From Bacteriovoracaceae bacterium (GTDB taxonomy: Bacteria > Bdellovibrionota > Bacteriovoracia > Bacteriovoracales > Bacteriovoracaceae): 16,601 nucleotides of DNA. This document shows, one piece after another, positions 1 through 15,100 of this stretch. The translations under genes and the position numbers were made by a program. The notes beneath the pieces are model-generated. The model made no database searches, was not told the origin of the DNA, and saw only the letters and a program-made list of their open reading frames with translations. The stretch spans positions 1 through 16,601 of the forward strand of contig JBMYPC010000065.1 of the NCBI GenBank assembly GCA_049599895.1, read 5' to 3'. How positions within the stretch are numbered: the stretch's first letter is position 1; the number at the start of each line of letters is the position of its first letter.

Positions 1-187
1 TGCTGACTTAGCAGCTTGAATAAATCTAATCGGCTCACTCTATGTGCTTTTCTCTACTTTCGAACTGGTGCAATTTGAGTTACCTAGGTGCAATTGGTGC
101 AGACCGTCAAAGTTTCTTGCTGTGCAAGGTCAAGAGTCTCCAAGTTTTGAGATCATCTTTAAGGCCAACCTAAGAAGTAAACCTCAA

Positions 188-228
188 TTGTAAAACAAGT
201 TGTAACATGTTATAATCAACTTAGGAGG
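188..228 (+). promoter_or_regulatory. Sigma70-like promoter, operator and RBS of the MazEF-like module
   Basis: TTGTAA (188-193), 17-bp spacer, TATAAT (211-216). The perfect palindrome TAACATGTTA (203-212) lies within the AAGTTG/CAACTT inverted repeat (197-202/217-222). AGGAGG at 223-228 precedes ATG 237. Confidence 0.8.
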
Positions 229-236
229 ACTCAATT

Positions 237-470
237 ATGGGTGCAATAAAGTTAACAAAAATAGGAAATTCACAAGGCTTAACTCTTCCCAAAGATCTTC
301 TTGAAAAAGGAGATTTCTCTCTAGGCGACACACTTGAAGTCTATCTTTATAATGGCAGATTAATTCTTTTTAAAAAACCTCTCCACCACTCGGAAATGAC
401 TTTTGAGGGAGGACAAGATTCGTCTGATCTTGAATGGACCAATGCTGATCTTGGAGAATGGGAGAATTAA
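237..470 (+). CDS. mazE: AbrB/MazE/SpoVT-family antitoxin
   Basis: N-terminal KLTKIGNSQGLTLPKDLL is the AbrB/MazE motif. Acidic C-tail ending DLGEWEN, strong RBS, 13-bp overlap with the toxin gene. Confidence 0.88.
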   Translation: MGAIKLTKIGNSQGLTLPKDLLEKGDFSLGDTLEVYLYNGRLILFKKPLHHSEMTFEGGQDSSDLEWTNADLGEWEN

Positions 471-793
471 ATTTGAAACGAGGTGAAGTTTGGTTAGCAC
501 AGTTAAATCCAACAAAAGGAAGTGAACAACAAGGGCATCGCCCAGTTGTTATTATATCGCCAGATTCTATGAATAGCTCTCTTCAAACGAAAGTTGTAAT
601 TCCTCTAACAACTAAAACCAAAAATTGGCCTTCACGTGTCTTAACTGAATTTAAAGGAAACAAAGGGCAGGCCATGTGCGAGCAGATCCGAACTCTTTCC
701 TCCTCTAGATTAACTAACTATCAAGGTAATCTTTCTGATAGTGAAATCGTTGAGATTATGAGTGTTATTGGAGCTTTATATGCGACACCTTAA
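458..793 (+). CDS. mazF: MazF/PemK-family endoribonuclease toxin
   Basis: KRGEVWLAQLNPTKGSEQQGHRPVVIISPD, VVIPLTT and AMCEQIRTLS match PemK/MazF signatures. It lies downstream of an AbrB antitoxin. Confidence 0.93.
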   Translation: MGELNLKRGEVWLAQLNPTKGSEQQGHRPVVIISPDSMNSSLQTKVVIPLTTKTKNWPSRVLTEFKGNKGQAMCEQIRTLSSSRLTNYQGNLSDSEIVEIMSVIGALYATP

Positions 794-795
794 AG

Positions 796-851
796 ATACA
801 TTCAAATGACACTCAAAACAAAAGCAAAAAGTGTCAAAATCCGTGTCATTT
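796..851. repeat. Dispersed ~50-bp TGTCA element, copy 1
   Basis: 801-849 matches 4716-4764 at 42/49 without gaps, and 796-855 matches 1993-2052 at 41/60 without gaps. It contains the IR AAATGACAC (804-812)/GTGTCATTT (843-851) and two direct GTGTCA 12 bp apart. Confidence 0.85.
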
Positions 852-878
852 TAAAACCGATAATCTCTTCATATTAAC

Positions 879-917
879 CATATCACCATTGATATGATCT
901 CAAGTTTGATATATAAT
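879..917 (+). promoter_or_regulatory. Sigma70-like promoter with two tandem XRE-type operators
   Basis: TTGATA (889-894), 17 bp, TATAAT (912-917). Perfect IR CATATCA-ccat-TGATATG (879-896) and a second, imperfect ATCTCA-agtt-TGATAT (897-912). Confidence 0.8.
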
Positions 918-925
918 TATGACCG

Positions 926-1237
926 ATGACATGGAAAGTTGTAATCACTAAAAAATGTGAAAGTGAATATTTAAAGTTACTGGATGAAGGTTATATTACA
1001 GACGCTCAAAATGATATTATCGTCGATATCATTGAAGCAATGGAAAAGTATGGCCCTGAAGTTTTTAGCGATTATGTCTCTTTCGATGTTAAAGACCATA
1101 ATTTAGTAAGAGACAAGAAATGGCATAAACATAAGTCTTGCTCTTTTTCTAAATCAGGAAGGTTAATATATCGTTATAGTGAAAAAAAGATTGAAATTGC
1201 CATAGTCCGTATCACTCCCGATCATGACTATAGCTAG
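926..1237 (+). CDS. RelE/YoeB/HigB-superfamily toxin-like protein (toxin-first module)
   Basis: 103 aa. N-terminal WKVVITKK, DHNLVRDKKWHKHKSCSFSKSGRLIYR and C-terminal RITPDHDY resemble the RelE/Txe-YoeB pattern. It precedes an XRE gene. Confidence 0.75.
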   Translation: MTWKVVITKKCESEYLKLLDEGYITDAQNDIIVDIIEAMEKYGPEVFSDYVSFDVKDHNLVRDKKWHKHKSCSFSKSGRLIYRYSEKKIEIAIVRITPDHDYS

Positions 1238-1246
1238 GAGCAAATA

Positions 1247-1534
1247 ATGAAGAATGCAAAAGACGTCATTAAAAGAAAAGTAAAAAAAGAATCGGCCGGA
1301 GATATCTTAAAAAGGTATCGTGAATCTTTTGAATTATCTCAAGCTGCTCTTGCTGAACTCATTGGAACAACCCAAAATAATATCTCTGCCATTGAAAATG
1401 GAAAAAGAGATATTGGAGTTAACGTAGCTATTAAACTTTGTGCTGTGTTTCCAGTTACTCTTGAAAAGCTTCTTGTACCCGGAGGGCTTAAGAATCATCC
1501 TGATTATAAGAAAGCGTTAAAAAGAGCGTCTTGA
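1247..1534 (+). CDS. XRE-family HTH protein, HigA-like antitoxin
   Basis: LKRYRESFELSQAALAELIGTTQNNISAIENGKRDI is a canonical HTH_3/XRE motif. AGGAG RBS at 1236-1240. Confidence 0.88.
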   Translation: MKNAKDVIKRKVKKESAGDILKRYRESFELSQAALAELIGTTQNNISAIENGKRDIGVNVAIKLCAVFPVTLEKLLVPGGLKNHPDYKKALKRAS

Positions 1535-1669
1535 TAAGACCTGTTTGCCTAAAAAGTCGGTTGCAAGCTCAAGAGATTTTTCCAAAGAAACAATTCCTTC
1601 AATTTTCTTGATAGGACAATTCAGTGTTTTCATCCATTCAAGATGTTTCTTTTTATTCCTGCCACTCAT
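1517..1669 (-). pseudogene. C-terminal fragment of a probable adenylate-kinase-like/P-loop protein, cut off by the IS remnant
   Basis: GRNKKKHLEWMKTLNCPIKKIEG resembles, from recollection, the C-terminus of small bacterial adenylate-kinase-like proteins. The N-terminal 28 aa of the called ORF are just the antisense of the IS remnant. Confidence 0.4.
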
Positions 1670-1781
1670 TTTGACGATACAGGGAGAAGAGTTGAGCCAC
1701 TGGATGACCCATTTGGTTTTAATAAAAAAGTGTAAACCATGTGTCCGATACAAAGTGTAAAGTATGTCTCCGGAATGGACC
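1670..1781 (+). mobile_element. IS481-family-like remnant: last transposase codons plus right end
   Basis: 1670-1735 reads FDDTGRRVEPLDDPFGFNKKV*, resembling the FD....LEPL.NPFG C-terminus of IS481-family transposases. It is followed by 25-bp-period direct repeats AAAGTGTAAACCATGTGTCCG (1727-1747) and AAAGTGTAAAGTATGTCTCCG (1752-1772), ending GAATGGACC. Confidence 0.7.
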
Positions 1782-1782
1782 C

Positions 1783-1810
1783 AAAAAGGCCCAGGAAAAT
1801 TGGGCCTTTT
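1783..1810 (-). terminator. Intrinsic terminator (probably bidirectional) downstream of the tRNA 3' half
   Basis: Perfect 10-bp IR AAAAGGCCCA-ggaaaat-TGGGCCTTTT, 6 bp past the CCA end. Confidence 0.8.
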
Positions 1811-1816
1811 AATATC

Positions 1817-1861
1817 TGGCGCGGAGTGAGGGATTCGAACCCCCGACCAAGCGGTTCGAAG
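1817..1861 (-). pseudogene. Orphan 3' half of a tRNA-Arg(TCG) gene (att-like site), allele C
   Basis: Minus strand reads CTTCGAA CCGCT TGGTC GGGGG-TTCGAAT-CCCTC ACTCCGC G CCA. The T arm and CCA are intact, and tRNA similarity stops exactly at the anticodon loop. 36/45 identical to the 3' part of the intact gene. Confidence 0.88.
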
Positions 1862-1992
1862 ACATGGAGTCTAAGTTCAATTTCCTCATTAAAACCATGC
1901 CTAATATATTAAAATCATTAATGTTCTTATTGTAAACTTTTTAACTATGGCCTTATCAAACAGCCTCATTTTTCTTTCATAACTCATTAGAA

Positions 1993-2048
1993 ATACATTC
2001 AACATACACTCAAAACAAGTAGATTTTCTGTCAATTTAACTGTCACTT
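1993..2048. repeat. Dispersed TGTCA element, copy 2 (diverged)
   Basis: ATACATTCAA..ACACTCAAAACAA and both TGTCA boxes (2029-2033, 2041-2045) align gap-free with copy 1. Confidence 0.7.
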
Positions 2049-2180
2049 TATAGTAACTAAAACAGTGAGAAAGTCGATAATAACTGGATATCTGACTCAT
2101 TTTAAGTTTGCTTGACTCTGTAAAAATACACTTACAAAGAAGGTGGCTCGAATCCACCTACTCTATAGTCTAAAAGCAAA

Positions 2181-2210
2181 GTGGATAAATTTGTCAACCC
2201 GTGTTATTAT
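2181..2210 (+). promoter_or_regulatory. Promoter/operator of the third TA-like module
   Basis: TGGATA (2182-2187), 17 bp, extended -10 TG-t-TATTAT (2202-2210). Imperfect palindrome GTGGATAAATTTGTCAAC (2181-2198). Confidence 0.65.
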
Positions 2211-2218
2211 GTATGTCC

Positions 2219-2539
2219 ATGGAGAAGGAAAGAAGAAACTATAAATTGGATAAGAGAATTAAGGTTAATGATATCTGGATTGAGGAAGTTATCATTGATC
2301 CCCACGTTGATAAGCATAGCGATCATATCGACGATAATTTAATTCTTTCTCTTGTAGAGTTACTTCATGGAAAATCATTTGTTCCAACAGTTCAGAAAGA
2401 TGGTTTTGCATATTTTCTCACAAGAATATTATTTGAAGAAAGAGTTTATAGACTCGTGTGGCTTCAAGAAAGTTGCAAGTTTTATATTGGAGTTATTACC
2501 TCTTTCAAAGAAAAAGGAGCTAAGCATGACATTCCCTAG
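2219..2539 (+). CDS. Hypothetical toxin-like protein (possible RelE/BrnT-like fold); start reassigned from GTG 2201 to ATG 2219
   Basis: 106 aa with IIDPHVDKH and a C-terminal YRLVW...IGVITSFK beta-strand pattern. It overlaps a downstream XRE gene. GTG 2201 lies inside the -10 region. Confidence 0.65.
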   Translation: MEKERRNYKLDKRIKVNDIWIEEVIIDPHVDKHSDHIDDNLILSLVELLHGKSFVPTVQKDGFAYFLTRILFEERVYRLVWLQESCKFYIGVITSFKEKGAKHDIP

Positions 2540-2834
2540 TGCAAATGAAATTAGTGATGTATTAAAGCAAATTTCAGAGAGCGAACCGACTCTTGTCATT
2601 GATTTTAATAATGCTTCAAAATCCGATATTCTCAAATACAGATTATGCCAAGAATTTGTAAAAGTACTTAAAGAAGAAAACCTTTCTCAAGTTGCTCTTG
2701 CTAATAAACTTGGAGTTGATAAATCTATTGTGAATAAAATTGTTCATCATAAGATTGAGACTTTTACTGTTGATCGGTTAATTGATCTATTTTCAAGCAT
2801 AAAGCCTTTAGAGGTTCTCTTCAAAGCAGGATAG
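2526..2834 (+). CDS. XRE-family HTH protein (HTH_37-like), probable antitoxin; true start ATG 2526
   Basis: AGGAG at 2515-2519. LSQVALANKLGVDKSIVNKIVHHKIETFTVDRL is an HTH motif. The 53-aa upstream extension in the ORF track merely overlaps the previous gene. Confidence 0.85.
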   Translation: MTFPSANEISDVLKQISESEPTLVIDFNNASKSDILKYRLCQEFVKVLKEENLSQVALANKLGVDKSIVNKIVHHKIETFTVDRLIDLFSSIKPLEVLFKAG

Positions 2835-2841
2835 TCTTTTA

Positions 2842-2982
2842 ATGAGTAAACAAAACAGAGCAAAAACATTCATTAGAAAGATCACTGGACATATTAGCTT
2901 TGGTGAAATGCTCCACTCCTATCCTATGGCCCAAGAAATCACTCAAGTTGAAATTGCAAATTCAGAGATAAACTTTCTTTGA
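2842..2982 (+). pseudogene. 3'-truncated XRE/HigA-like gene (not in the ORF track)
   Basis: MSKQNRAKTFIRKITGHISFGEMLHSYPMAQEITQVEIA parallels MKNAKDVIKRKVKKESAGDILKRYRESFELSQAALA (1247). It breaks at ~2958, inside the first HTH helix, where it runs into GNAT antisense. Confidence 0.62.
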
Positions 2983-3563
2983 AGTGCTTGCCCAAAACCT
3001 TTTCTTTTATATTCTTTTGTCAAAAAGATTTCTCCAAAATACATTCCACTATGTCCTAAAAAATCTTCTCTCTCGGCCGAAATGAGTCCAGCAAGACTGT
3101 CATCAACATAGACATAGTACATAAGTCCTTGCTCAATTGAATCTTCCATTACACTCTGTGAGTTTATGGTTACTTTGTCTTTTAAATCTGGATGCTCTTC
3201 ATGAAACTCATTATAGCCTTTCTGATACCAATCATAATAAGAGTTATCTTCAATTTTAGAGAATTTAATCCTTCCTTCTAGATCCCAGGGCTTTGAGTTC
3301 TTAATTGTCTTGGCCTGAGCGACAACATATAACTTTGAGCAATAATCTCCAAGTTTATTTGTTTTTGACTGAAATCTAATACTTTGAGGCTTAAATACCT
3401 CAAACAAGTTTTTACATTCCTCATAGATTTCAAAAACTTGCTCTTGAGAGATTATTTCAAAATCAGCCTTAATTTGTACAAAAGGAAGCTTAGGGTTGGC
3501 CCCTAAATGTCTTACTCCAGCTATAAAGTTTCCATACTTCGAACGAAGATAATACTCAGTGAT
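2943..3563 (-). pseudogene. GNAT-family acetyltransferase fragment, apparently truncated at both ends
   Basis: Motif A is EIFLTKEYKRKGFGQALQ. The frame stays open 52 codons upstream of TTG 3407 (..FIAGVRHLGANPKLPFVQ..) up to a TAG at 3564-3566, with no ATG/GTG/TTG start. The protein ends about 11 aa after motif A, without the final GNAT strands. Confidence 0.72.
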
Positions 3564-3681
3564 CTAGCTTATATGTCTTTGAAATCACTTTTCTAAGGTA
3601 TATGACAACCCAGAGATATAATAAGAGAAAGCGTAGCTTTAGAAAGAACCCTGTATTTAATCTAAATTTCTTCTAATATTT

Positions 3682-3719
3682 ACAATATAGGTTGAAATAA
3701 ACCTGTATTGTGATATATT
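3682..3719 (+). promoter_or_regulatory. Promoter/operator of the fourth TA-like module
   Basis: TTGAAA (3692-3697), 16 bp, TG-a-TATATT (3711-3719). 12-bp IR ACAATATAGGTT (3682-3693)/AACCTGTATTGT (3700-3711), 11/12 match. Confidence 0.75.
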
Positions 3720-3728
3720 ACCTTTAGG

Positions 3729-4019
3729 ATGGGAAAATCGAGGCTTATTTACTATTTAAAGGAAGAAATTAGAGGAAAGTACATAATGGAGCTTAGAATC
3801 CATACTGTTGAAGATAAGCGCTATTTAGATGGTATTAAATATGCTCTTCTATTGATTGAACCTAAAAGTGGTAAGAAAGTTTTGATGGATAATCATCATC
3901 CTAAAGGCCATCATTTTCATCTTGATGATGATGAGTTTGATTATAATTACAAGAATGATGACACTTTAATTGAGGACTTTAAAAAACTTGTATTGCAGCA
4001 TTTTGGAGAAAAGATATGA
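3729..4019 (+). CDS. DUF6516/TumE-like toxin-family protein
   Basis: GIKYALLLI...VLMDNHHPKGHHFH...LIEDF matches the G.KY.L...DN...KG.H.H signature. ATGA overlap with the next gene. Confidence 0.78.
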   Translation: MGKSRLIYYLKEEIRGKYIMELRIHTVEDKRYLDGIKYALLLIEPKSGKKVLMDNHHPKGHHFHLDDDEFDYNYKNDDTLIEDFKKLVLQHFGEKI

Positions 4020-4384
4020 AGAAACTAATTGTAAGCTTAAAATCACCTTCTGAGTCTTTAGAAGACTTCAAGATGGCCCTAAGATCAGCAAGAAAAGGGA
4101 AGAGCAAGAACGAACACTATGAGATTGCATTTGACAATAAAAAGGATTTTTCCAAATTTATCAAGAATATTGATATCCTTATGACAATTCAATCTCTCAG
4201 ACCATCATCTGTATATGAGTTGGCCAAGCTCCTTGGAAAAGATCAATCTAATATTAATAAAACTATTGCATTCTTCGAGACTTATGGAATTGTGAAGATC
4301 AAAGAGTCTAAAAAGAACAACAGAACTGTGAAAAAGCCAATTGTTGACTATAACAAAATAGAGTTCGATTTAGAGGCTGCATAA
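4016..4384 (+). CDS. HVO_A0114-like winged-helix DNA-binding protein, probable antitoxin
   Basis: PSSVYELAKLLGKDQSNINK...YGIVK...KKPIVDYNKIEFDL fits this family's pattern. It is coupled to the DUF6516-like gene. Confidence 0.78.
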   Translation: MKKLIVSLKSPSESLEDFKMALRSARKGKSKNEHYEIAFDNKKDFSKFIKNIDILMTIQSLRPSSVYELAKLLGKDQSNINKTIAFFETYGIVKIKESKKNNRTVKKPIVDYNKIEFDLEAA

Positions 4385-4582
4385 GAGAATTATCTTATGG
4401 GACATATTTATTGAGATTTTTTATATCTTGAAAGGCGTACTTCCACCCTACAAAAACTATCACCTAAATATCTGAGCTGCCTAGATTGTTGCACTGACAG
4501 AAGAAAATAGCTCATTAAAAAGAGAGCTAATGTTACTTAAGGCCCAACTAAAATTAGAAAGGCCTTAAAGTAATTTTCGAGC

Positions 4583-4616
4583 AAAAAAAAAGCTTCTGGA
4601 AACCTAGAAGCTTTTT
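4583..4616 (-). terminator. Intrinsic terminator of the intact tRNA-Arg
   Basis: Minus strand GCTTCTAGG-TTT-CCAGAAGC followed by 9 T, 4 bp past the CCA end. Confidence 0.85.
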
Positions 4617-4620
4617 ATAA

Positions 4621-4697
4621 TGGCGCGAGATGAGGGACTCGAACCCCCAACCCTTTGGTTCGAAGCCAAATACTCTATCCGGTTGAGCTAATCTCGC
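4621..4697 (-). tRNA. tRNA-Arg(TCG), complete, allele B
   Basis: 77 nt: acceptor GCGAGAT/ATCTCGC, D arm GCTC/GAGT with A20, anticodon arm TTTGG-CTTCGAA-CCAAA, T arm GGGGG-TTCGAGT-CCCTC, G73, encoded CCA. Confidence 0.97.
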
Positions 4698-4715
4698 ACA
4701 TACTTTTAAACTACT

Positions 4716-4766
4716 TTCAGATGGCACTCAAAACATTTTAAAAAAGTGTCAAAATCCGTGTCATCT
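4716..4766. repeat. Dispersed TGTCA element, copy 3
   Basis: 42/49 identical to 801-849. It sits between the intact tRNA and the split-tRNA junction. Confidence 0.85.
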
Positions 4767-4825
4767 ATTTATTAACCTAGGAAAGTCCTAGTAATTTCAA
4801 AAACTTAAATTCTCCAACCAACAGG

Positions 4826-4864
4826 TTCGAAGCGCATTACTCTATCCAGCTAAGCTACAGATGC
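4826..4864 (-). pseudogene. Orphan 5' half of a tRNA-Arg(TCG) gene (att-like site), allele A
   Basis: Minus strand reads GCATCTG TA GCTT-AGCTGGATA-GAGT A ATGCG CTTCGAA, then CCTGT instead of the required CGCAT. No T loop or 3' acceptor strand follows. Confidence 0.87.
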
Positions 4865-4895
4865 TAAGATTTAAAAGATGAAAATAAGAATTTGC

Positions 4896-4904
4896 AGTAT
4901 AGCA
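4896..4904 (-). promoter_or_regulatory. Extended -10 promoter of the original tRNA gene
   Basis: Minus strand TG-C-TATACT, 31 bp upstream of the 5' half. No clear -35. Confidence 0.5.
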
Positions 4905-5058
4905 AACCTCATCCCATTTTCCCATCTCTTTTTTATCTTATTTCGTTCTTAGGCCTTAGTCTTAACTTTGCATCTTCTTCAAAGCCGCAGTTAAGACATT
5001 TGAAGGGTTTACAACAATCATTCATGTGGGAGAGGACGTCAAACAGCGAAGGACGGCC

Positions 5059-8000
5059 CTATTCGAAATAAACGCTGTATTTGGAATCTTTTAAGTCCAT
5101 AACACATGAGTAATAACCACCAGCGAGACTCGAAGCGCCACCTGTAAAAATAAGATCCGAGACCCACGATTCTGCACCACAGTTTTCAGAGCTCCAGTTC
5201 CCGTCTCCAGAAGTTCCTGGAAAACTGGTTTCAATAGGCCCAATAATTTTATGGAGAGGGGCGTCATTATCGGAGTTCTCGAGAATACCAAGATTTGGGA
5301 AAAGGCATTTTGTCTCATCGGGATCAGAGGAGATGTCTTCTACAATGGCATCTGTCTCAACCCAAAAGCCTAAGAAGTCAAGGTCTGGATCATTCTCAAA
5401 ATCTTTAACGGCTTGAAGTTCAGTTTCAGACGTTAATTTTAATGTGGGAAAACTTGAACCGAGTTTAATTGTGGTTCCAGCGCAGTTCTCAGCGGCTTGA
5501 ATAGGACCAGTTAAGTCACTTTCAATGATATAGGTGATTCGATTATCATAATCGATTGTCATATCAGTATCTGGAGCAAGAATTTGGGTTGTATTGGCTT
5601 CAGTTGGCCATGCATGAAACGGTTTTGCTGGATAGGGATTTCCTCCAAGGGCCTTTGAAATAACCCATGGAGTGATCGTGACATTGTATTTTGCTCCAGG
5701 AACAAGGCCATTAATTTTTACAGTGATAACTCCATTTGTTTTCGAAGCAAGTCCACTGTCGATAAGACTACTCAATTGAAGAGTTCTTACAGCTCCGACT
5801 TTGATCTCGTAATCATCAATGGACTCGACCCAATCAGTGTCGATTTCAAATTCATTGAAGCTAAACTGAACCCAAGCACTGACTTCACTTCCACCAGTGA
5901 TAGAAGTTTTTGGAATACTATAAGTTTGGTTATAGTTTGTATTCTCTCCCGGGGGATCAAAACCAGTGACACTAAATGGAGGGGAGTCAACATCCCCAAC
6001 AATAGAGAAATAAATCTTTCGCGTGGGACATTCATCAATAAGATTGTTATTAATAAAGTTTGCACAATACTCCATATAAAGTCCTTCATGACCTGCGACA
6101 TTCTGACTATCACTTGCGTCAACAAAAGTTTCATCTGTTCGATAACCCACGGTCATGACACATTCATCACCTGGTCTAAGACCTGTGGTTTCAAAGTCGT
6201 CACAACTTTCAACTCCAGGGTAAAGAACTGGTGGGTGAGAGTTACTGACATAAATTCTTTGTTTTTTTCTTTTCTCAAAAATGTGCTTGAGATAAGGAGG
6301 GATGTCTAAAACCTTGGCACTCATTCCTCCGAGAGGTTGAGGGTTTTTGAATTTGATTTCAAAGAGCTGATCCATGGTGGGTTTTCCAAGATCTGGGAAC
6401 TCCTCATATTTTGCGGTATGAAGGTAATACGGTAAAGGTCCGGGAAGTACATTGTGAAGATCTTTGAGGTATTTTGGTAGGACAAGACCTAGTTGTGCGA
6501 CATCACTTGCGGCATTATTGTTATTCCAAAGATTTTGTGTTGCACCTGGGAGTTTAATTACAACTTCTTGAGGAGTGTCGTCCACATCGAGAAGTGTTGA
6601 GCGTATATTATTGGTTGCATCTGTTGCATCAGCGTAAAGATACATCTTCGATCCAGCAGTTAAAGTGGTTGAAGTCTTATTAAGTATGAGGTAGCGACCA
6701 TCGGCTTCAACAATCGTCGCTGATTCATCTCCCGATGCTGATTTTAAGACTTGTCCAGTTGTGAAAGAAAAACTATCAATTTCTGTTGATTTAAAGTCTT
6801 TGTCAGCATCGTTTGTAATCATAAGTTCAGCACTGTCGTTGAGAACGATACTATATTCATTACCTCCAAGATCTTGAAATTGAAAATAGTCCACACCGTC
6901 GTTGAAGGTTTGGCCAAGACGATTGGTATTGGTAAAAATGGGAGAGTCGTCGTTCACTGTAAACTCATCTAAGTAGGAAGCTAAGAAACTTTTGGCTTCA
7001 ATTTCAAGCTCAACTGTTGGAAGAGATTGGAATTTAAGTTCAAATTGCTCGTACATCCTTGATCCATCATCAAGTTCGTAAGAAATATTCACTGTTCTAG
7101 AAAGTGGGTTTGGTTCATAGTTATCAGGTTTATAGACCACCGAGATGAGACATCTCTCGTTTTGACTTAATTGAAAAGGAGTCGAAGCCCCTGCAAGGTC
7201 GTCACAGGTGTAACCAGCGTCATCTTCATCAACGAAGATAAAGTTATAGTCTTTAGTATTGAATTCAAACTCATCACCTAAAGGTTTACTATTTTGTTCA
7301 GTGACGGGGGGGCCAAGAATTCCATATGTTTTCGTGAGGTAAACTTCCATATTCTTGATCGGAACACTCTTGTTGTTTTTAATTTCAATATAGTATTTTT
7401 TATAATAACTATCTTCTGCAACGTCTGTAACGCCATATGTTTGCTGATAAACGGACTTGTGAAAAATCTTTCCCGTTGTGATGGGGATGCTTGAGATGTT
7501 TTCCAGGGAATCGCAATTTGCATCATCTGTATCTAAGAAAGGATGATCAATTTCAATGACTCCTGTTTCTGAATTTGGACAAACTTCAAAAGGATGAATT
7601 GTTACGGTTGGTGCAGGAGTTTCTGCGACAGGAAGTGTTCTTGCGATAAAAAGAATTTTCTTTTTAAACTCAACTTCTTCAAATAGCGGTTCGTGAGACC
7701 CGTCAAGTAAAAGATAACCATCGTCAATATTGTCAGTGTCGATGCCTTTACCTTTGTAACCCTTGGTTACTTCTTCTGATTCCGCACAATATTCACCATT
7801 TCTTCCGGTGTACATAAAGTTTCCAGACATATATCTGACTTCTGCTTCAATTAAATGAATGGCGCTCGCACCGGTTGTGTTTTTCTTGATGAGCATGACA
7901 AACTTTTCCATCTCATCAACAAGGTCATCAGGATCATTAAAAGTTGTTAAGTCTTTTTTGACCACAAGTTTTGCGGGATCAGTTGTGTCGAATATATCAA

Positions 8001-11000
8001 GAGCGGCCTCAAAGTTATTATCTTCAACGAAAGTTATCGCTTTGTCACTGGGGTCTGGATAAGTGAAAGTAATGTCTTTAAGAGTAAGGTTTTTGTCTTT
8101 TGTAAACTCAACAAGTTTCACTCGATCACTTCCTTGATTTGTGAAAGAGCCAAGATAAACCACAAAGTCATAATCATTGTATTCGTCGGATTTTGTTGGG
8201 TCAACCGTTGTGATTTTATTCATGATATCTGTTTCTTTAGAGAGAAAAAAGCTTTGTATCTCAGGATCGACATGTGATTGAGATGCTGTTGTCTTTTTAT
8301 TATAATAGACCGGTTTGATAACGAGATCTTCTTCGATATTTGTTTCGGTATCTGCTTCAATTGTACTTCCACTAGATCGAATAAGGGAGTTCGCCGGTAA
8401 AAGTTGCGATTGAAATGAAGGGTAGAAATAACGATTTCCTTTAGTCTTGTTATCAAAAGCAATTGTTCTTGAGGACGGAGGAAGATCACTGAGAAATGAA
8501 AGTCGATTTCCAAGAGTGGGATGTCCATCTGGCATTGGTTTTGGTTTATCGAGATCTCCATCATAATAATAGAATGAAATGGGATTGGTGTGGTGGCCAA
8601 CCCCTACGTGACGTGGTGAGAGCATATCAAGACTTCCCCGACAAGAATTCTCGTTAGCCGAAGCATCCCAGTTCCCTGTTGCGTAGCCCACAAGGAATTC
8701 CTCCATATCATAATTTTTAACGGAGGGATCATCTGTAAAGTCCGAAAGCCCTATTGAGTTTTGTTGGCCATGATCGGTTCTTGTCTCTTTGTGGCCATAG
8801 GGAGCTTTATAACGAAAGGAGAGCATACAAGATTGTCCAGGTTGCAGGTTCAGGTTTGTTGTTGCCGCAACAGAATAATAATTAAATTCTGGTGTACCAT
8901 CATCGACGGTTGTATCAAGTGGGTCCTCTACATCTTCTCTTGGGCCATAAACATTGGGTTTGTTTCTGATAAGGTCATAGCAGTCAATATACTTATCAAA
9001 TGTATCATTTCCTACGGTGACCGTTTCTCCTAGATCAAAGACTGGGTGACTTTTTCGATCAACATGATACTCTGGTCCTGCTGTAGGTGCTTTTGAACGA
9101 ACCAGTTGCACAATATTTTTATATGAAAAAGGGGCATCCTTATCATATTCTAGGGGATGACTTGGGTCGACATAGATGTAAGGGATACTCCCACTTCCGA
9201 TATTTTCAAACATGATATGGCGATAGACAGTGAGTCCATTAGGAACCTGTCCGAAATCAAGCGTACTTGTAAAGGTCCCTCCTGCGGTCGTGCTTGCCGT
9301 TTCAATATTTCGCATACGGATTTTTCCCTTAGAAACAAGGGAGGCCTTAAAATGAAATTCGATTTCTCTCATGATGAGATTGTCGTCAGCATCTGTTCTT
9401 CCTGAACCATCATGATACTCAATGATAAACTTCTTAGAGTTGTTTCTTGCCGTGATGATATAGTCATCTTTTTCAACACCATCAGGCCGGTCGTCATATT
9501 TGCTTGAATCTTTTGAAATATCATAGAGACATGACTGTTGAATGAGCTTATTACCCATAATCGGAGTGAAATCAAAGTTGATGTCACAGGTTCTTCCGAG
9601 TGGCTCGATGACAGTCCCTTCTTCTGCATTAGTACCATTTATGCAGTTATGGGAAATCTTTTCAAAATAAGGAGTAAAACCACAATTTTGATTAAGCGAT
9701 GGAAGACCTGGACCTGGAAGCTCAATCTTGACTTCATCTCCGTCCGAGTCCTCGATAATGGAATAAAGTTTTACGTTGGTGGCCTGAGTCTTCCCTGTAT
9801 TTTTCATTTTAATTTTAAAGTGATAAGGAAGAGACTTTCCTTCTTGAACCATTGCGATTCTACCGAGGTCAACTTCATAATAGATTCGGCTTCGATCAAA
9901 ACTGATAATATCTGAAACGGTTGCTGAAGTGTCCGTAAAGTTTTCACTTAGAATGAGGCGATCGGCAAGAACGGAGCTGATTTTGTAGTTCTTTGTATAG
10001 GGAGCGGGAAGAACTTCATCTCCTATGAAAACATATTCCGTAGGATCGGTGCCTGAAACATTGATGACATTGCTGCCGTTTGTGAAAGTAAAAAGTGCTG
10101 AAAATGTTTCAGAGAAGTTGTCATTGAGGCCATCGAAGACTTCCAGTCCTGGTGAATTGATTGTACTGTCTGTGAAAGGGGTATCAAGAGTAATCGTTGT
10201 TGCCGTTACAGCAATCACTTTGTATTTGTTGAGATAGGGCTCTGGACGAATGTTTTGATTCGATTTGAGTGCTATTAAAGGATCAATTCCAGTGACGAGA
10301 ACTTCATTGCTTCCATTGGTGAAAGTAAAGTTTCCAGAAATTCTTTTTTCACTGATGTCAACTCCACTTCCTTCAGGAAGGACGATTTTTTCTGAAAGAT
10401 AGCTAATCTCATCAAGAGCGATTTCTCCAAAAGAGACAGATCTTGCGTTTAGATAATAAAGAATATCTGTTTTGTAGATATGAGTATTAACGGTTTTTTT
10501 CCACCTTGAATCATATTCAACAAAAAATGGCATGTTGGGAAAGTCTCTTATTTCAGCATGAGCGCCATCGGCTTTGAGATTTGCATTGATCCCTGGTTTG
10601 AAATGAACATCAAAGAAGCAGGTTTCATTACCGTAAAGAGCAATGTTAAGGCCCTTGACGTCTCGATCAGCATGAAGACAGCCATCAAGATCGACAATTT
10701 CATAAGGAAAGAAATCGTTATGAAGAGGAGTCTTGTCAGGAGAGTCTTTCAGGCAATAGTGAAAGCTTGCACTCAAGTCAGCACAGGTATGGCCATCAAG
10801 AAGGTTCGCGGCTTCCATGTCTGATTTTTTGATGGAAAAGTTACCTCGAGACCATTCTCCGTCTTGAGGATGAGGAACAAAGAAAAATCCACCATCATAA
10901 CAGCTTAAGGTCGCTTCTCCTGGAGCATCGAGAGGATTCCTTTCACAGACAACGAGTCTGTCAGCTCCGTCAAGTTTTGACATTTTTGTGTTGATATCAT

Positions 11001-12102
11001 CAGTGGGAATGATGATATTTTCATCAACAACCAATTGGTCTTTAAAACCGACAAAGACTTTATCAATTTTTCCATCCGAAAAGCCTTTGTTACTGACGCC
11101 TAGCTTGATTTTTGATTCTTTTCCAGCAGTAATATCCGACGAAGCCGTAACAGGGTCTTTGAAGGTTTGGTTTTTGGTTGTACTTGAAGCATCAAACTTT
11201 GCCCGAATTTGTGTAGAGAAAGCTTTATAGGTCTGTTGCCTTCGATCAGTTCGACCGAGTTGATCCATCTTAAATTCGATATCAAAAATAGTCGTCAGAT
11301 TGGCTTCAACAAAAGGAGTGTTATTGGTGGGGTTATAGGCAACGACAACCTCACAACTTTCTCCAGCAGGAAGAAAGGCCGGACATTTATTTTCCGCTAT
11401 CGTAAAGGCAGTATCATAGCCAGCACTGTTGGGAGTGAATTTAAGACCGTGGGCACTAAGCTCTCCAATATTCTTTAAAAGAATACTTTCAAACTTAGGG
11501 TCTGCGTCAGCTTCAGGTACCGCCACAGAGAAAAAGGGAAGAAAAGGATCTTCAACCTCTTGAAGCCCTAGATCAATTATCGCTTCAGTATTTTCAATAA
11601 AAAGCTTTGCCGGAAGTCCCGTAAGAGCGGTGATACTAAAAGAAGTGGTTTCGGCTTCAATTAAGTTTTTATAGCTAACATTGAAATCGTATTTTAAGTT
11701 TCCAGATCCTTCAGGAGCAAATGTCACGACGACTGTACATTCTTGACCAGGGGCAAGCTTACTACCACAGGTCCCGCCATCTCCTGGGTAAACCGAAAAA
11801 AGTCCGTCAGTTTTATAATCGACTCCGGTCACTTCACCAGTATTTTTAAGAACCACATTAAATTGAGTGAGAGGATGTTCTCCGTCATTTTTAAAAGTGA
11901 TTTCATATGCAAAACCAGGGGTGTCAAGAGCGAATTCTCCGACTTCAAAGGGGTGGTTTGCTGAGATGATAAGATTGCCATAATACTTTTCAGCATTTTG
12001 AACTTTTACCTCGGCTTGCTGGCCTGGTATACAGCTTACCAAGAGTCCTAGGAACCCCAAAAGGAGGGCTTCGAATAGGGATTTAAGTTTAAAAGACTTC
12101 AT
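5059..12102 (-). CDS. Giant (~2347 aa) surface lipoprotein with repeated Cys-containing Ig-like (choice-of-anchor D/ASH-like) domains and a C-terminal FN3-like domain
   Basis: ATG 12102 overlaps the upstream TAA and follows GGAG (12113-12116). Signal peptide II MKSFKLKSLFEALLLGFLGLLVS-C24. About 7 motifs of the type L.PG..C.h.h.F.P, e.g. GTCGSKLAPGQECTVVVTFAP. VKINGLVPGAKYNVTITP is FN3-like. Confidence 0.9.
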   Translation of the reverse strand: MKSFKLKSLFEALLLGFLGLLVSCIPGQQAEVKVQNAEKYYGNLIISANHPFEVGEFALDTPGFAYEITFKNDGEHPLTQFNVVLKNTGEVTGVDYKTDGLFSVYPGDGGTCGSKLAPGQECTVVVTFAPEGSGNLKYDFNVSYKNLIEAETTSFSITALTGLPAKLFIENTEAIIDLGLQEVEDPFLPFFSVAVPEADADPKFESILLKNIGELSAHGLKFTPNSAGYDTAFTIAENKCPAFLPAGESCEVVVAYNPTNNTPFVEANLTTIFDIEFKMDQLGRTDRRQQTYKAFSTQIRAKFDASSTTKNQTFKDPVTASSDITAGKESKIKLGVSNKGFSDGKIDKVFVGFKDQLVVDENIIIPTDDINTKMSKLDGADRLVVCERNPLDAPGEATLSCYDGGFFFVPHPQDGEWSRGNFSIKKSDMEAANLLDGHTCADLSASFHYCLKDSPDKTPLHNDFFPYEIVDLDGCLHADRDVKGLNIALYGNETCFFDVHFKPGINANLKADGAHAEIRDFPNMPFFVEYDSRWKKTVNTHIYKTDILYYLNARSVSFGEIALDEISYLSEKIVLPEGSGVDISEKRISGNFTFTNGSNEVLVTGIDPLIALKSNQNIRPEPYLNKYKVIAVTATTITLDTPFTDSTINSPGLEVFDGLNDNFSETFSALFTFTNGSNVINVSGTDPTEYVFIGDEVLPAPYTKNYKISSVLADRLILSENFTDTSATVSDIISFDRSRIYYEVDLGRIAMVQEGKSLPYHFKIKMKNTGKTQATNVKLYSIIEDSDGDEVKIELPGPGLPSLNQNCGFTPYFEKISHNCINGTNAEEGTVIEPLGRTCDINFDFTPIMGNKLIQQSCLYDISKDSSKYDDRPDGVEKDDYIITARNNSKKFIIEYHDGSGRTDADDNLIMREIEFHFKASLVSKGKIRMRNIETASTTAGGTFTSTLDFGQVPNGLTVYRHIMFENIGSGSIPYIYVDPSHPLEYDKDAPFSYKNIVQLVRSKAPTAGPEYHVDRKSHPVFDLGETVTVGNDTFDKYIDCYDLIRNKPNVYGPREDVEDPLDTTVDDGTPEFNYYSVAATTNLNLQPGQSCMLSFRYKAPYGHKETRTDHGQQNSIGLSDFTDDPSVKNYDMEEFLVGYATGNWDASANENSCRGSLDMLSPRHVGVGHHTNPISFYYYDGDLDKPKPMPDGHPTLGNRLSFLSDLPPSSRTIAFDNKTKGNRYFYPSFQSQLLPANSLIRSSGSTIEADTETNIEEDLVIKPVYYNKKTTASQSHVDPEIQSFFLSKETDIMNKITTVDPTKSDEYNDYDFVVYLGSFTNQGSDRVKLVEFTKDKNLTLKDITFTYPDPSDKAITFVEDNNFEAALDIFDTTDPAKLVVKKDLTTFNDPDDLVDEMEKFVMLIKKNTTGASAIHLIEAEVRYMSGNFMYTGRNGEYCAESEEVTKGYKGKGIDTDNIDDGYLLLDGSHEPLFEEVEFKKKILFIARTLPVAETPAPTVTIHPFEVCPNSETGVIEIDHPFLDTDDANCDSLENISSIPITTGKIFHKSVYQQTYGVTDVAEDSYYKKYYIEIKNNKSVPIKNMEVYLTKTYGILGPPVTEQNSKPLGDEFEFNTKDYNFIFVDEDDAGYTCDDLAGASTPFQLSQNERCLISVVYKPDNYEPNPLSRTVNISYELDDGSRMYEQFELKFQSLPTVELEIEAKSFLASYLDEFTVNDDSPIFTNTNRLGQTFNDGVDYFQFQDLGGNEYSIVLNDSAELMITNDADKDFKSTEIDSFSFTTGQVLKSASGDESATIVEADGRYLILNKTSTTLTAGSKMYLYADATDATNNIRSTLLDVDDTPQEVVIKLPGATQNLWNNNNAASDVAQLGLVLPKYLKDLHNVLPGPLPYYLHTAKYEEFPDLGKPTMDQLFEIKFKNPQPLGGMSAKVLDIPPYLKHIFEKRKKQRIYVSNSHPPVLYPGVESCDDFETTGLRPGDECVMTVGYRTDETFVDASDSQNVAGHEGLYMEYCANFINNNLIDECPTRKIYFSIVGDVDSPPFSVTGFDPPGENTNYNQTYSIPKTSITGGSEVSAWVQFSFNEFEIDTDWVESIDDYEIKVGAVRTLQLSSLIDSGLASKTNGVITVKINGLVPGAKYNVTITPWVISKALGGNPYPAKPFHAWPTEANTTQILAPDTDMTIDYDNRITYIIESDLTGPIQAAENCAGTTIKLGSSFPTLKLTSETELQAVKDFENDPDLDFLGFWVETDAIVEDISSDPDETKCLFPNLGILENSDNDAPLHKIIGPIETSFPGTSGDGNWSSENCGAESWVSDLIFTGGASSLAGGYYSCVMDLKDSKYSVYFE

Positions 12103-15100
12103 TAAAAATCTTCTCCATAAACCATTACTGAACATCGACCTGAGAGAGTAAACTCTTTTTCAATTAAGCTCTGCATTGAGAGGTTTAAACTGTATCTTCC
12201 GGTGTACTCATCAGAAAAGTTTCCACCGTTGAAAAAGTACCCTGTTTGTGAATTACTTTTATTGACTGGGCGTCTGGTTCGAAGCTGAAGATCTCCATAA
12301 GCTCCGTTTGCATGCATGAATTGCCCAAGACTCGTGATTCTTCGAATGATGAAATTACCTTGTTTTCGAGTTTCACCTGAGCCATCAGCATGGTCACAAT
12401 AATTATCAAGATTTGCGGCATCTGTAGAACATCCTGAAGCGGCTAAATTATAATCTGCAACATAGTCATCTCCAGCTGATTGATCTTCGACATCTTCGAT
12501 ATAAGCAAGAATATTACCTCTTGCAAAGAATTCGGTCATGTCATAATTTGGGTTATTCGCTCCATAGTTCGCCGAAGTGTAACCATCTTCATAATCATCA
12601 ACACCAAAACTTTTAATAAGACTTCGTCCGGTAAAATAAGCACAGTCTGAAGTTGCAAGGGCATCCTCTGTCATGGGATCTCCATCAGGGTCTTCACATT
12701 TTCCTTTCGAATCATCAGCACCGCCAATCGTCTTATCAATAAGATTTTTTCTTAGATCATCAGTTGTAATAAGTTTATGATCGCCGGATGTGGCATCGCA
12801 TGCTGATCCATTACAGGCAAGTGGGAGTCCAAGAGTTGGTGAAAAATAAGTTGATTTATCATGTGGATTGAAATGTTCTCCATTGATCGTTTCTTCAAAG
12901 AGTGCGAGAGAATGCTCTTTTTTAGTCGGGTCATCCATGTTACTAATAAGGGGAGGAATAACCTGGGAGTTATTTCCAAACTCAAGAAACCTTCCATTAG
13001 AAGTATCTCTCAACATAAGGACACTTTCTTGATCATAAAAGTCATCTTGAGTGTAAGTGGTGGCACCTGTCTGAGGCTTGGTGAGAAGTTTCGCTCTTTG
13101 AATAACGGCTGCAGAGGATGCCGTTCCATCAAAGTCATAATTTGTTCTAAAGAAATCACCATAAATTGATTCAAAGGCAGAGCTTGGAGTTGGAAAAGGT
13201 TGAAAGATATCAGCACTTCTTTGCGCTGAATAACTTGTCACACTACAATCCCCTGGGAAAGCTCCAAGCTCTGGTGCAAGTTTTAGCTCTAAGCCAGTCT
13301 TTGCATTTGTGATGGCGTATGGTGGGAAATCTCCCCCTGGCCAGGTGTCAAGAGCATTAAAGAAAGAATCTCCATCAATAACTCCTCGGCCAAGTCGCCA
13401 CTGAACACTTTGAGGATTACACCAGAAGTTGTCAGTTCCCACTTCTTCGTAGTTTCCAATCGCATCTTGAATACCAAAGCGAGACTTGCAGTTATGAGTG
13501 GTGTAGACATTAGGACTATCTGAGTCATCAAGTCCTGATCCACTCCATAAAGGATGGTCGTTACCTGAAGTTTCAGCTCTTGGGAAGTTTCCTAAAAGCT
13601 CCGCTCCAATTGTCCTAAATAAACTTGGTGCGAGTCCGCCTGTCCAGCGTGTGTCGTTATTACAAGCACCATCTTCGTCGTCACTGGCACCTTCAACACT
13701 CAAAATCTTTGCTTTGTCAAATGTTTCAGGCCAAGCAGCAAAGGCAACAAATTCTTTTCTTCTTGGAAGGCGTTTTTTAATTCCAACACCTTGGTTTCTG
13801 GCCTTGACATCGATGGCGACAAAAGATTCGGTATCATTTCTAAAGCCGACATTGATATTATAGGTCTGGCAAAGCTTATGAAATTGTTTTTGTGAGAGTC
13901 CATCAATGGGAGGGAGCTTGGAGTTATTTGAAGTCATGACTCTTGTTAGAGGCATATCGGGATGAAGTCGTCCGGTGTCTGTTTTTTCAAGGTCGGTATC
14001 AAGTTCCATTGAGGCAATTTTTCGATTTGGGGTTGAACCTGACTCAGTTCTTAAGTCCGGTGCATCCCAAAGACCTCCATAGAGATCTTCACTTTGAAGA
14101 ACATCGAGAACCGTCTTTTTATAAAGAAAGTCACTTCCAAGATCTTTGACGACAATATCAGTGGGAGTTATCGAAGTTTCATGACGCTTATCTTTTGAGA
14201 TGGTCCAGTCTGAATCGAGAACCTGAGTAAGACCAATCCATCTTGGTCTATGAGTCCCTTCCATATTTTTTATTTCAGCATGACTAGGGTTTTCAATTGA
14301 GCCAGCATAGTCAACAGTCCCATCACCTTTATTGGAATCAAAAACAGTAGAGCGAATTCCACTTAAATTGATAAAGCATGAAGTAGGAGTATTCTTAGAA
14401 GACTTTAAAAAGAGAGCTCTGGTTTCGTCATCACCTCGATTGTCTCCATTAGTGTCATAGGCATTGCCAGCAAGGTTTGAAAAGCGGCTGGGATCAGTAC
14501 TTGAAAAGAATCGATTAAGGAGCATTGTCCGATTGTTTCCAGTGGCATAAGTTGGGTTGGAAGTTCGATTGTGCATGTACCTCATATAAAAAACAGCACC
14601 GAACTCAGATTGAGCAGCTCCGGGAGGGTAGTTATCATCATCGTGAAAGTTATTATCTCCTGAATTGTCGTAAGTGTTGGCAACTTGAAAAGGCTTATTA
14701 TGATTACCAGAATCTGAATTAACGTTATGAAGTTCATGGGTTCCATATGACCAGTCGGCACTTGGAAAGCGGTTAAAAGTACTTTGAGTGTAAGCACGAT
14801 AACAGTATGGATTTGACGCCGTTGTATTGACTGGTGATTTCTCTTGAAAGAGCCCTGGGAAAAAATACTCATGCCGATGATGCGTATGTTTTGAGTCATT
14901 ATTTTTTGCACGGTTATCACAGTCGGCGGCTCTATAGGCAGCAATAGACATCGTCTCATGGTCTGTACGCTCAGCGGAGCTATAACAGTCTCCAGGACGA
15001 ACTTGGTTATGAAGGAAAACTCCTTCTTCGTCATCGGTTACAGTCCCTGCTCCTTGAGCTTGTTCGGGAGAAAAACAGCCGACTTGAATATCTGATTCTT

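Follow-up and report, generated by a model that had tools for sequence, protein, structure and literature searches.

The window, a 16,601-nt stretch of Bacteriovoracaceae DNA that makes up the whole of contig C65 of genome G000 (an assembly of 3.27 Mb in 266 contigs from a metagenome-like source), contains a 5' half, a complete copy and a 3' half of tRNA-Arg(UCG) genes, all in minus-strand orientation. Our analysis indicates that positions 1862–4825 are very probably a defective integrative island, which entered a tRNA-Arg(UCG) gene by crossover within the 7-nt anticodon loop, left that gene unrepaired and carries a complete replacement, allele B, 128 bp inside its left end. The three tRNA pieces belong to three different alleles (A, B and C) with a common loop, the right end of the island resembles the island ends of relatives, and the same layout recurs in other genomes.

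An earlier note, made from the sequence of the window alone, had placed the 5' half (allele A), the complete gene B 128 bp further on and the 3' half (allele C) where coordinates, ARAGORN and Rfam also put them (Table 1), gene B starting 128 nt past the loop of allele A. It had also rightly seen that both halves are broken at the same loop, that the 3' half is followed by its own terminator and that the alleles differ. The 7-nt loop CTTCGAA is present at all three tRNA sites, as is GGTTCGAAG. In order to compare the alleles, every 5' half was paired with every 3' half, in the acceptor (7 positions) and in the anticodon stem (5 positions), with G-U pairs allowed. Allele B pairs only with itself (7/7 and 5/5); the scores were 2/7 and 2/5 for both A5'/C3' and A5'/B3', and 5/7 and 3/5 for B5'/C3'. 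These mismatches show that A, B and C are three distinct alleles. Neither junction, on the A side or on the C side, forms a tRNA, and only 7–9 nt are shared. Both junctions lie within the anticodon loop, that is, the attachment site overlaps the tRNA gene. The D arm of A is intact and both of its stems differ from those of B, while the T arm of C is perfect. Among the 150 family matches listed for the 3' pattern, the CCGCT arm of C is the only one of its kind; of the 150 family stems listed for the 5' pattern, 146 end in GG, that of A ending in CG. Past the A loop, the sequence CCTGT TGGTT GG resembles a 3' arm that belongs to a fourth type of allele, known from family genomes; it looks like a variable loop and the start of a T stem, and pairs 4/5 with the A stem. 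Allele A is likely the front part left behind from the gene struck by the insertion, an earlier resident of the locus, and its anticodon stem (ATGCG), which is of the GCG type discussed below, hints that A too may once have arrived with an element. Neither the 3' half of A nor the 5' half of C was found in the G000 assembly. Energy folding of B gave no cloverleaf and was not used as evidence.

Both ends of the island carry a pair of TGACA(C/G) repeats with 12-bp spacing (TGACAC at 4763–4746 on the left, TGACAG at 2045–2028 on the right), and they share repeat D1, found at 787–849, 1984–2046 and 4702–4764. When the right end is set beside those of G152, G158 and two contigs of G153, the alignment is in register and extends to the repeats and the conserved box. 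Because of their position, and of the arm sites noted in the accessible part of a study of actinobacteriophages (PMC10865867), the repeats would be arm-type integrase sites. The left end may also hold the promoter of B. The GC content of the island is 32.3%, against 37.7% for the genome.

Table 1. Features of the window, listed from the A side (left end of the island) to the C side and beyond.
Feature	Position	Strand	Remarks
5' half of tRNA-Arg(UCG) allele A	4864–4833	-	Acceptor GCATCTG, anticodon stem ATGCG
Anticodon loop of allele A, CTTCGAA; putative crossover core at the left junction of the island	4832–4826	-	Same 7 nt at all junctions in relatives
Left end of the island, 128 nt	4698..4825	-	tRNA 3' arm vestige, short hairpin, two TGACAC repeats, candidate promoter for B
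Complete tRNA-Arg(UCG) allele B, replacement gene	4697–4621	-	ARAGORN tRNA-Arg tcg; Rfam RF00005, 66.4 bits
Terminator-like hairpin behind B	4616–4587	-	Terminator scan
Likely tyrosine integrase remnant pointing at the tRNA (final 27 codons with the stop codon)	4485..4568	+	
Two-gene pair, likely toxin-antitoxin	3729..4384	+	Second gene HVO_A0114 winged helix; first gene no family
GNAT-type acetyltransferase frame	2943..3566	-	Weak Pfam PF00583 match
Two-gene pair, likely toxin-antitoxin	2201..2834	+	Second gene HTH_37; first gene no family
Right end of the island	1862..2046	-	Two TGACAG repeats 12 bp apart (2045–2028), conserved box, ~185 nt to core
Allele C: loop (1861–1855), then 3' half to CCA at 1817; right junction	1861–1817	-	
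9-bp hairpin and T run behind C	1784..1811	-	Missing from the terminator-scan list
CCGGAGACAT / TTTACAC repeats, likely arm sites of another element	1730..1773	-	
Two-gene pair outside the island proper, likely toxin-antitoxin	926..1534	+	Second gene HTH_3
Third copy of the arm module, right-end-like, no core behind	787..849	-	
mazEF-type toxin-antitoxin pair adjoining the third arm module	237..793	+	PF04014, PF02452

The short frame at 4485–4568 likely represents the remnant of the integrase gene of the island, as it has the place and orientation seen in related elements. There, a 469-aa integrase (PF00589) ends 92, 4 and 71 nt from the whole tRNA (loci L071, L103 and L114) and points at it; the frame in the window ends 53 nt from B. 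Picked by eye, it was then scored with the 58,983 stop-ended peptides of G000 against the C-terminal tails of four related integrases, and ranked first (46.75; next best 38.25). Neither the sequence behind C nor six stretches scanned in relatives contained such a remnant. When the three closest integrases were used as queries, only the two known copies were retrieved from genome contigs and none from viral contigs. Among seven more distant homologues, two have the half-then-whole layout, three follow an intact tRNA and show no half, and contig ends truncate the other two. This distribution suggests that the integrase family likely mixes restoring and non-restoring members, a mixture also described for K6 phages in the accessible text of PMC10865867.

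tRNA-Arg(UCG) is nothing unusual in the family, its 5' pattern being matched in 168 of 237 genomes and its 3' pattern in 166. A core 98–128 nt ahead of a whole gene was found in only three of the 237 (G152, G153 and G158), at four places; the longer spacing of the window falls outside this search pattern, and a looser search of 401 genomes of the phylum added G096. Four family genomes thus share the layout of the window. In G152, two 5' halves stand in a row, 132 and 131 nt apart, ahead of a divergent whole gene; a 3' half lies 7.5 kb further on and pairs with the first of the two 5' halves at 7/7 and 5/5 positions. The remainder of the contig yielded no second 3' half. The upstream half in G158 has decayed. 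On contig C3 of G153 the order is right end, CTTCGAA, left end and whole tRNA, with no tRNA 3' half at the core, which is the form expected of attP. The tRNA borne by the element at this junction is the closest to B among 66 alleles fetched (7 differences in 77 nt). The left ends of related elements likewise start with a tRNA 3' arm vestige. Together, the layout in relatives, the G153 junction and the stacked halves of G152 support the proposal of a break-and-replace event by an element that carries a whole tRNA just inside its end.

The same arrangement is found beyond the family. Tandem scans returned 11, 21 and 16 loci (48 in all), of which 43 show a half followed by a whole gene; they were selected by pattern and many are related, so that they are neither independent counts nor a frequency. 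Two of them repeat the G152 and G153 loci, and the named matches are mostly Gammaproteobacteria. Identity between half and whole gene stops within 5 nt of the loop in 37 of the 43, and the whole gene has a different anticodon stem in 24. The six others, in which identity runs 11–20 nt past the loop (L085, L087, L089, L090, L094 and L104), are partial tandem copies with a different type of junction or repeat. Three elements are complete (L045, 7.5 kb; L098, 6.7 kb; L108, 10.1 kb), and in each the 3' half at the far end is a full partner of the stranded 5' half (7/7 and 5/5). L098 (split gene) and L108 encode a tyrosine integrase, so that integrase elements with a whole tRNA-Arg(UCG) beside the core, as anticipated by the earlier note, do occur. 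The closest relatives carry conjugation genes. An anticodon stem ending in GCG was seen in 15 of the 43 whole, element-borne genes and in none of the 43 stranded host halves; this may mean that the stem shields some element alleles from their own integrase, or may reflect the ancestry of one clade. At one locus (L091:5436–10170) a 5' half is followed by two whole tRNA-Arg(UCG) genes with GCG stems, 4.5 kb apart. Viral contigs gave two matches, one with core, tRNA and integrase. The other (L117:1–10224) opens on a 5' half, which is followed by the core and a whole tRNA-Arg(UCG), and carries capsid, portal and protease genes; it is a candidate for tRNA-dependent lysogeny outside Actinobacteria.

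A sister element that uses tRNA-Leu(GAG) bears on the claim that a core of 7–9 bp would be enough to enter any allele. Two of the distant homologues of the 469-aa integrase belong to it. This conjugative element of ~44 kb is found in two genera (G010:C8:173–43950; G112:C17 from 264770, and G112:C9:137681), 99.9% identical over 38,985 nt. In each host its start follows a different tRNA-Leu(GAG) 5' half, only TTGAGGG being shared; the element carries a whole tRNA-Leu(GAG) and has the same right end, followed by the 3' half of the host itself (within a single contig of G010, spread over two contigs of G112). Two congeners of G112, G114 and G009, have an intact tRNA-Leu(GAG) with a homologous upstream flank. 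These data support entry at a short core independently of the allele for the sister element, which needed only the 7-nt loop, and do not speak directly for the window locus.

At the locus itself, a tyrosine integrase would have bound the paired repeats with 12-bp spacing at both ends, strand exchange taking place within CTTCGAA. Its gene would have lain just behind the tRNA and would since have been deleted down to 27 codons, toxin-antitoxin-like pairs taking its place, and B would be transcribed and now serve the host. A single insertion is not sufficient to explain the locus, since A5' and C3' do not pair and cannot be one gene. At least two events are therefore needed, and two routes fit about equally. 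In one, an earlier element bearing C would have split A, the element bearing B would then have entered and split C, and loop-out would have removed what lay between the two left cores; the additional right-end module at 787–849 and the stack in G152 fit this route. In the other, the B element would have split A, and C would be the 3' half brought by a conventional element that later inserted at the right junction; the CCGGAGACAT / TTTACAC repeats behind C fit this second route, as they are also found behind tRNA-Arg(UCG) 3' ends in G153 (contig C43), G158 and G022, in the last behind an intact gene. Both routes predict that the 3' half of A lies beyond the left end of the contig or has been lost.

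Several results weigh against this reconstruction. The 3' half of A that both routes predict is not in the assembly, and the empty site with an intact allele A that had been expected in relatives was not found: none was seen at this locus, G000 being the only genome of its genus in the genome searches. The integrase remnant was chosen by eye, has no DNA-level match and is not significant in the whole-profile search (E 0.93), which detected no intact integrase of the 469-aa family in G000 either; no integrase was found inside the G152 and G158 elements. Finally, the scan loci are pattern-selected and often related, and the six in which identity continues past the loop are what partial duplications would give. 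Other searches were also negative. Neither allele A, sought by exact scans of metagenomes and viral contigs, nor allele C, sought in the same way in viral contigs, gave a match, and no excision joint was found in the contigs of four runs, contigs being prone to drop rare forms. A joint 1850–4838 was considered as an excision product and rejected, as other letters stand between and it is not from this locus.

The alternative that survives best, and it is very unlikely, is that there was no replacement at all: A would have arisen as a tandem paralogue of B and decayed, and C would be the scar of an ordinary old island. The T-stem-like stretch past the A loop, with its 4/5 pairing, and the partial duplications of this tRNA in 6 of the 43 scan loci are what such a history could leave. 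Against it, A differs from B in both stems and yet keeps an intact D arm, the left ends of related elements begin with the same type of vestige, and the island-type right end and integrase remnant are left unexplained. It is highly improbable that a 5'-restoring island collapsed to 128 bp and left B as a hybrid, its front from the element and its back from the host. The 5'-restoring class is indeed recognised by a 5' fragment lying upstream of a whole gene (accessible text of PMC4383910); B3' would however have to pair with A5', for which we obtained 2/7 and 2/5, and in the complete relatives the host 3' half is at the far end of the element. No more probable is a history of conventional 3'-restoring islands only, whose halves diverged later. 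Such islands form the common class (3,760 of 3,919 in the same source), and C may have come this way given the G022 repeats, but this history provides no reason for the upstream 5' half, and B5' and C3' mismatch in both stems (5/7, 3/5) although the T arm of C is perfect. An assembly chimera joining tRNA genes of different organisms, conceivable for 266 contigs from a metagenome-like source, is hardly credible, as two contigs assembled from run X1 (possibly the source sample) span 21–6500 with 0 differences, run X2 from another study gave identical pieces at 4261–4581 and 4587–4743, and the layout recurs in other genomes. Break-and-replace by a now-defective island remains the preferred reading.

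Under this reading the host may depend on the island for decoding. The assembly contains 28 tRNA genes, with Arg(ACG), Arg(UCU) and a single Arg(UCG), which is B, the only intact UCG gene and the only UCG or CCG gene. The count of Arg isoacceptors proposed as a check in the earlier note thus gave one intact UCG gene beside an ACG gene, in a tRNA set that is incomplete, several amino acids having no tRNA gene. The dependence for CGA put forward with it has become doubtful, as tRNA-Arg(ACG) is present together with a TadA-like gene (137.7 bits; cut-off 150). Inosine at position 34 reads CGA, not CGG. Any dependence on B would therefore be likely to concern CGG more than CGA, and B probably reads CGG and assists in the reading of CGA. 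Over 2,358 long open reading frames, CGA makes up 19.4% and CGG 2.9% of Arg codons, CGG occurring in 772 of these frames. Ten relatives were tested: four have UCG only, three CCG only, none both and three neither, the last group making the dependence on B uncertain and counting against it. In the family, UCG and CCG Arg tRNAs look mutually exclusive (G003, G006, G011, G121, G126, G158 and G237).

No phage genes were found among the scanned open reading frames, and the island therefore does not qualify as a temperate phage. The module at 787–849 looks like another right end, cut off by mazEF. Homologues of the toxin-antitoxin-like pairs are found on G000 contigs C10, C31, C45 and C76, adjoining an integrase on C10, tRNA-Phe on C31 and tRNA-Cys on C45. 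Upstream of the tRNA pieces, two very large minus-strand frames occupy 5059–12135 (2,358 aa, lipoprotein-like start, Ig-like domain) and 12102–16511 (at least 1,469 aa, no Pfam match). A search with the C-terminal part of the 2,358-aa product found no relatives, so that no synteny test could be made. The DUF368-type gene that stands upstream of tRNA-Arg(UCG) in several relatives is on another G000 contig, without a tRNA-Arg behind it. Scanning genome contigs with the TGACAC repeat of the window gave 24 matches, about what we estimate chance would yield for an 18-mer, and none with tRNA-Arg(UCG).

The closest known system is the tRNA-dependent lysogeny of actinobacteriophages (Fionnbharth of cluster K4, cluster L, Cain, Gaia and BrutonGaster; Guerrero-Bustamante and Hatfull 2024, PMC10865867), whose accessible text leaves open how far the strategy spreads outside actinophages. 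The island shares with these phages an attachment site that overlaps a tRNA gene, a short core, the absence of rebuilding and a whole tRNA of its own, and it is well supported that the window locus works in this way, by break-and-replace. The differences lie in the carriers, which here are conjugative elements and small non-phage islands of Bdellovibrionota and Gammaproteobacteria (the window island is not a prophage, as the strict sense of lysogeny would require); in the targets, here Arg(UCG) and Leu(GAG), with stacked 5' halves; and in the spare tRNA, which lies 95–200 nt inside the left end here and overlaps gene 37 in Fionnbharth. The window copy has lost its integrase except for the likely 27-codon remnant, whereas related elements keep intact genes. 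With the tDNA islands of Islander (3,919 in total, 159 with a 5' fragment), those at the anticodon-centred site A in particular, the locus shares crossover in the anticodon loop, a displaced far-end fragment and tandem arrays, as far as described in the accessible text of PMC4383910. Those islands restore the gene from attP, whereas here neither half is functional, and the fragment at the far end may differ in allele from the whole gene; restoration of one same allele was indeed not observed (B5'/C3' 5/7, 3/5; A5'/B3' 2/7, 2/5). A similar tRNA substitution is mentioned for rhizobial prophage-like sequences in the accessible parts of PMC12429752 and PMC11476347, and PMC13626063 contributed nothing further on the matter. 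Our literature search, which covered few subscription papers, found no non-phage case of this strategy.

These results extend a strategy shown in 2024 for actinophages to conjugative elements and small islands of other phyla. On a wider scale we suggest, as a tentative view to which we give slightly less than an even chance, that a widespread family of non-phage elements serially overwrites host tRNA genes. A 7-nt loop would suffice in any allele or genus, the tRNA of the element would be both an addiction factor for the host and the next target, and the chromosomal tRNA-Arg(UCG) of some lineages would thus be the property of elements, the window recording at least two rounds. Tools that match a tRNA to its own fragment would, judging from the available description (PMC4383910), miss such elements or misplace their bounds when the alleles differ. 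Intact systems that can be tested are offered by the relatives. An allele-independent target of 7 nt widens the host range, as in the element found in two genera, and offers a way for a core tRNA gene to turn over horizontally. Should no tRNA other than the spare one read CGG, the end of the island would be hard to lose even after its integrase is gone.

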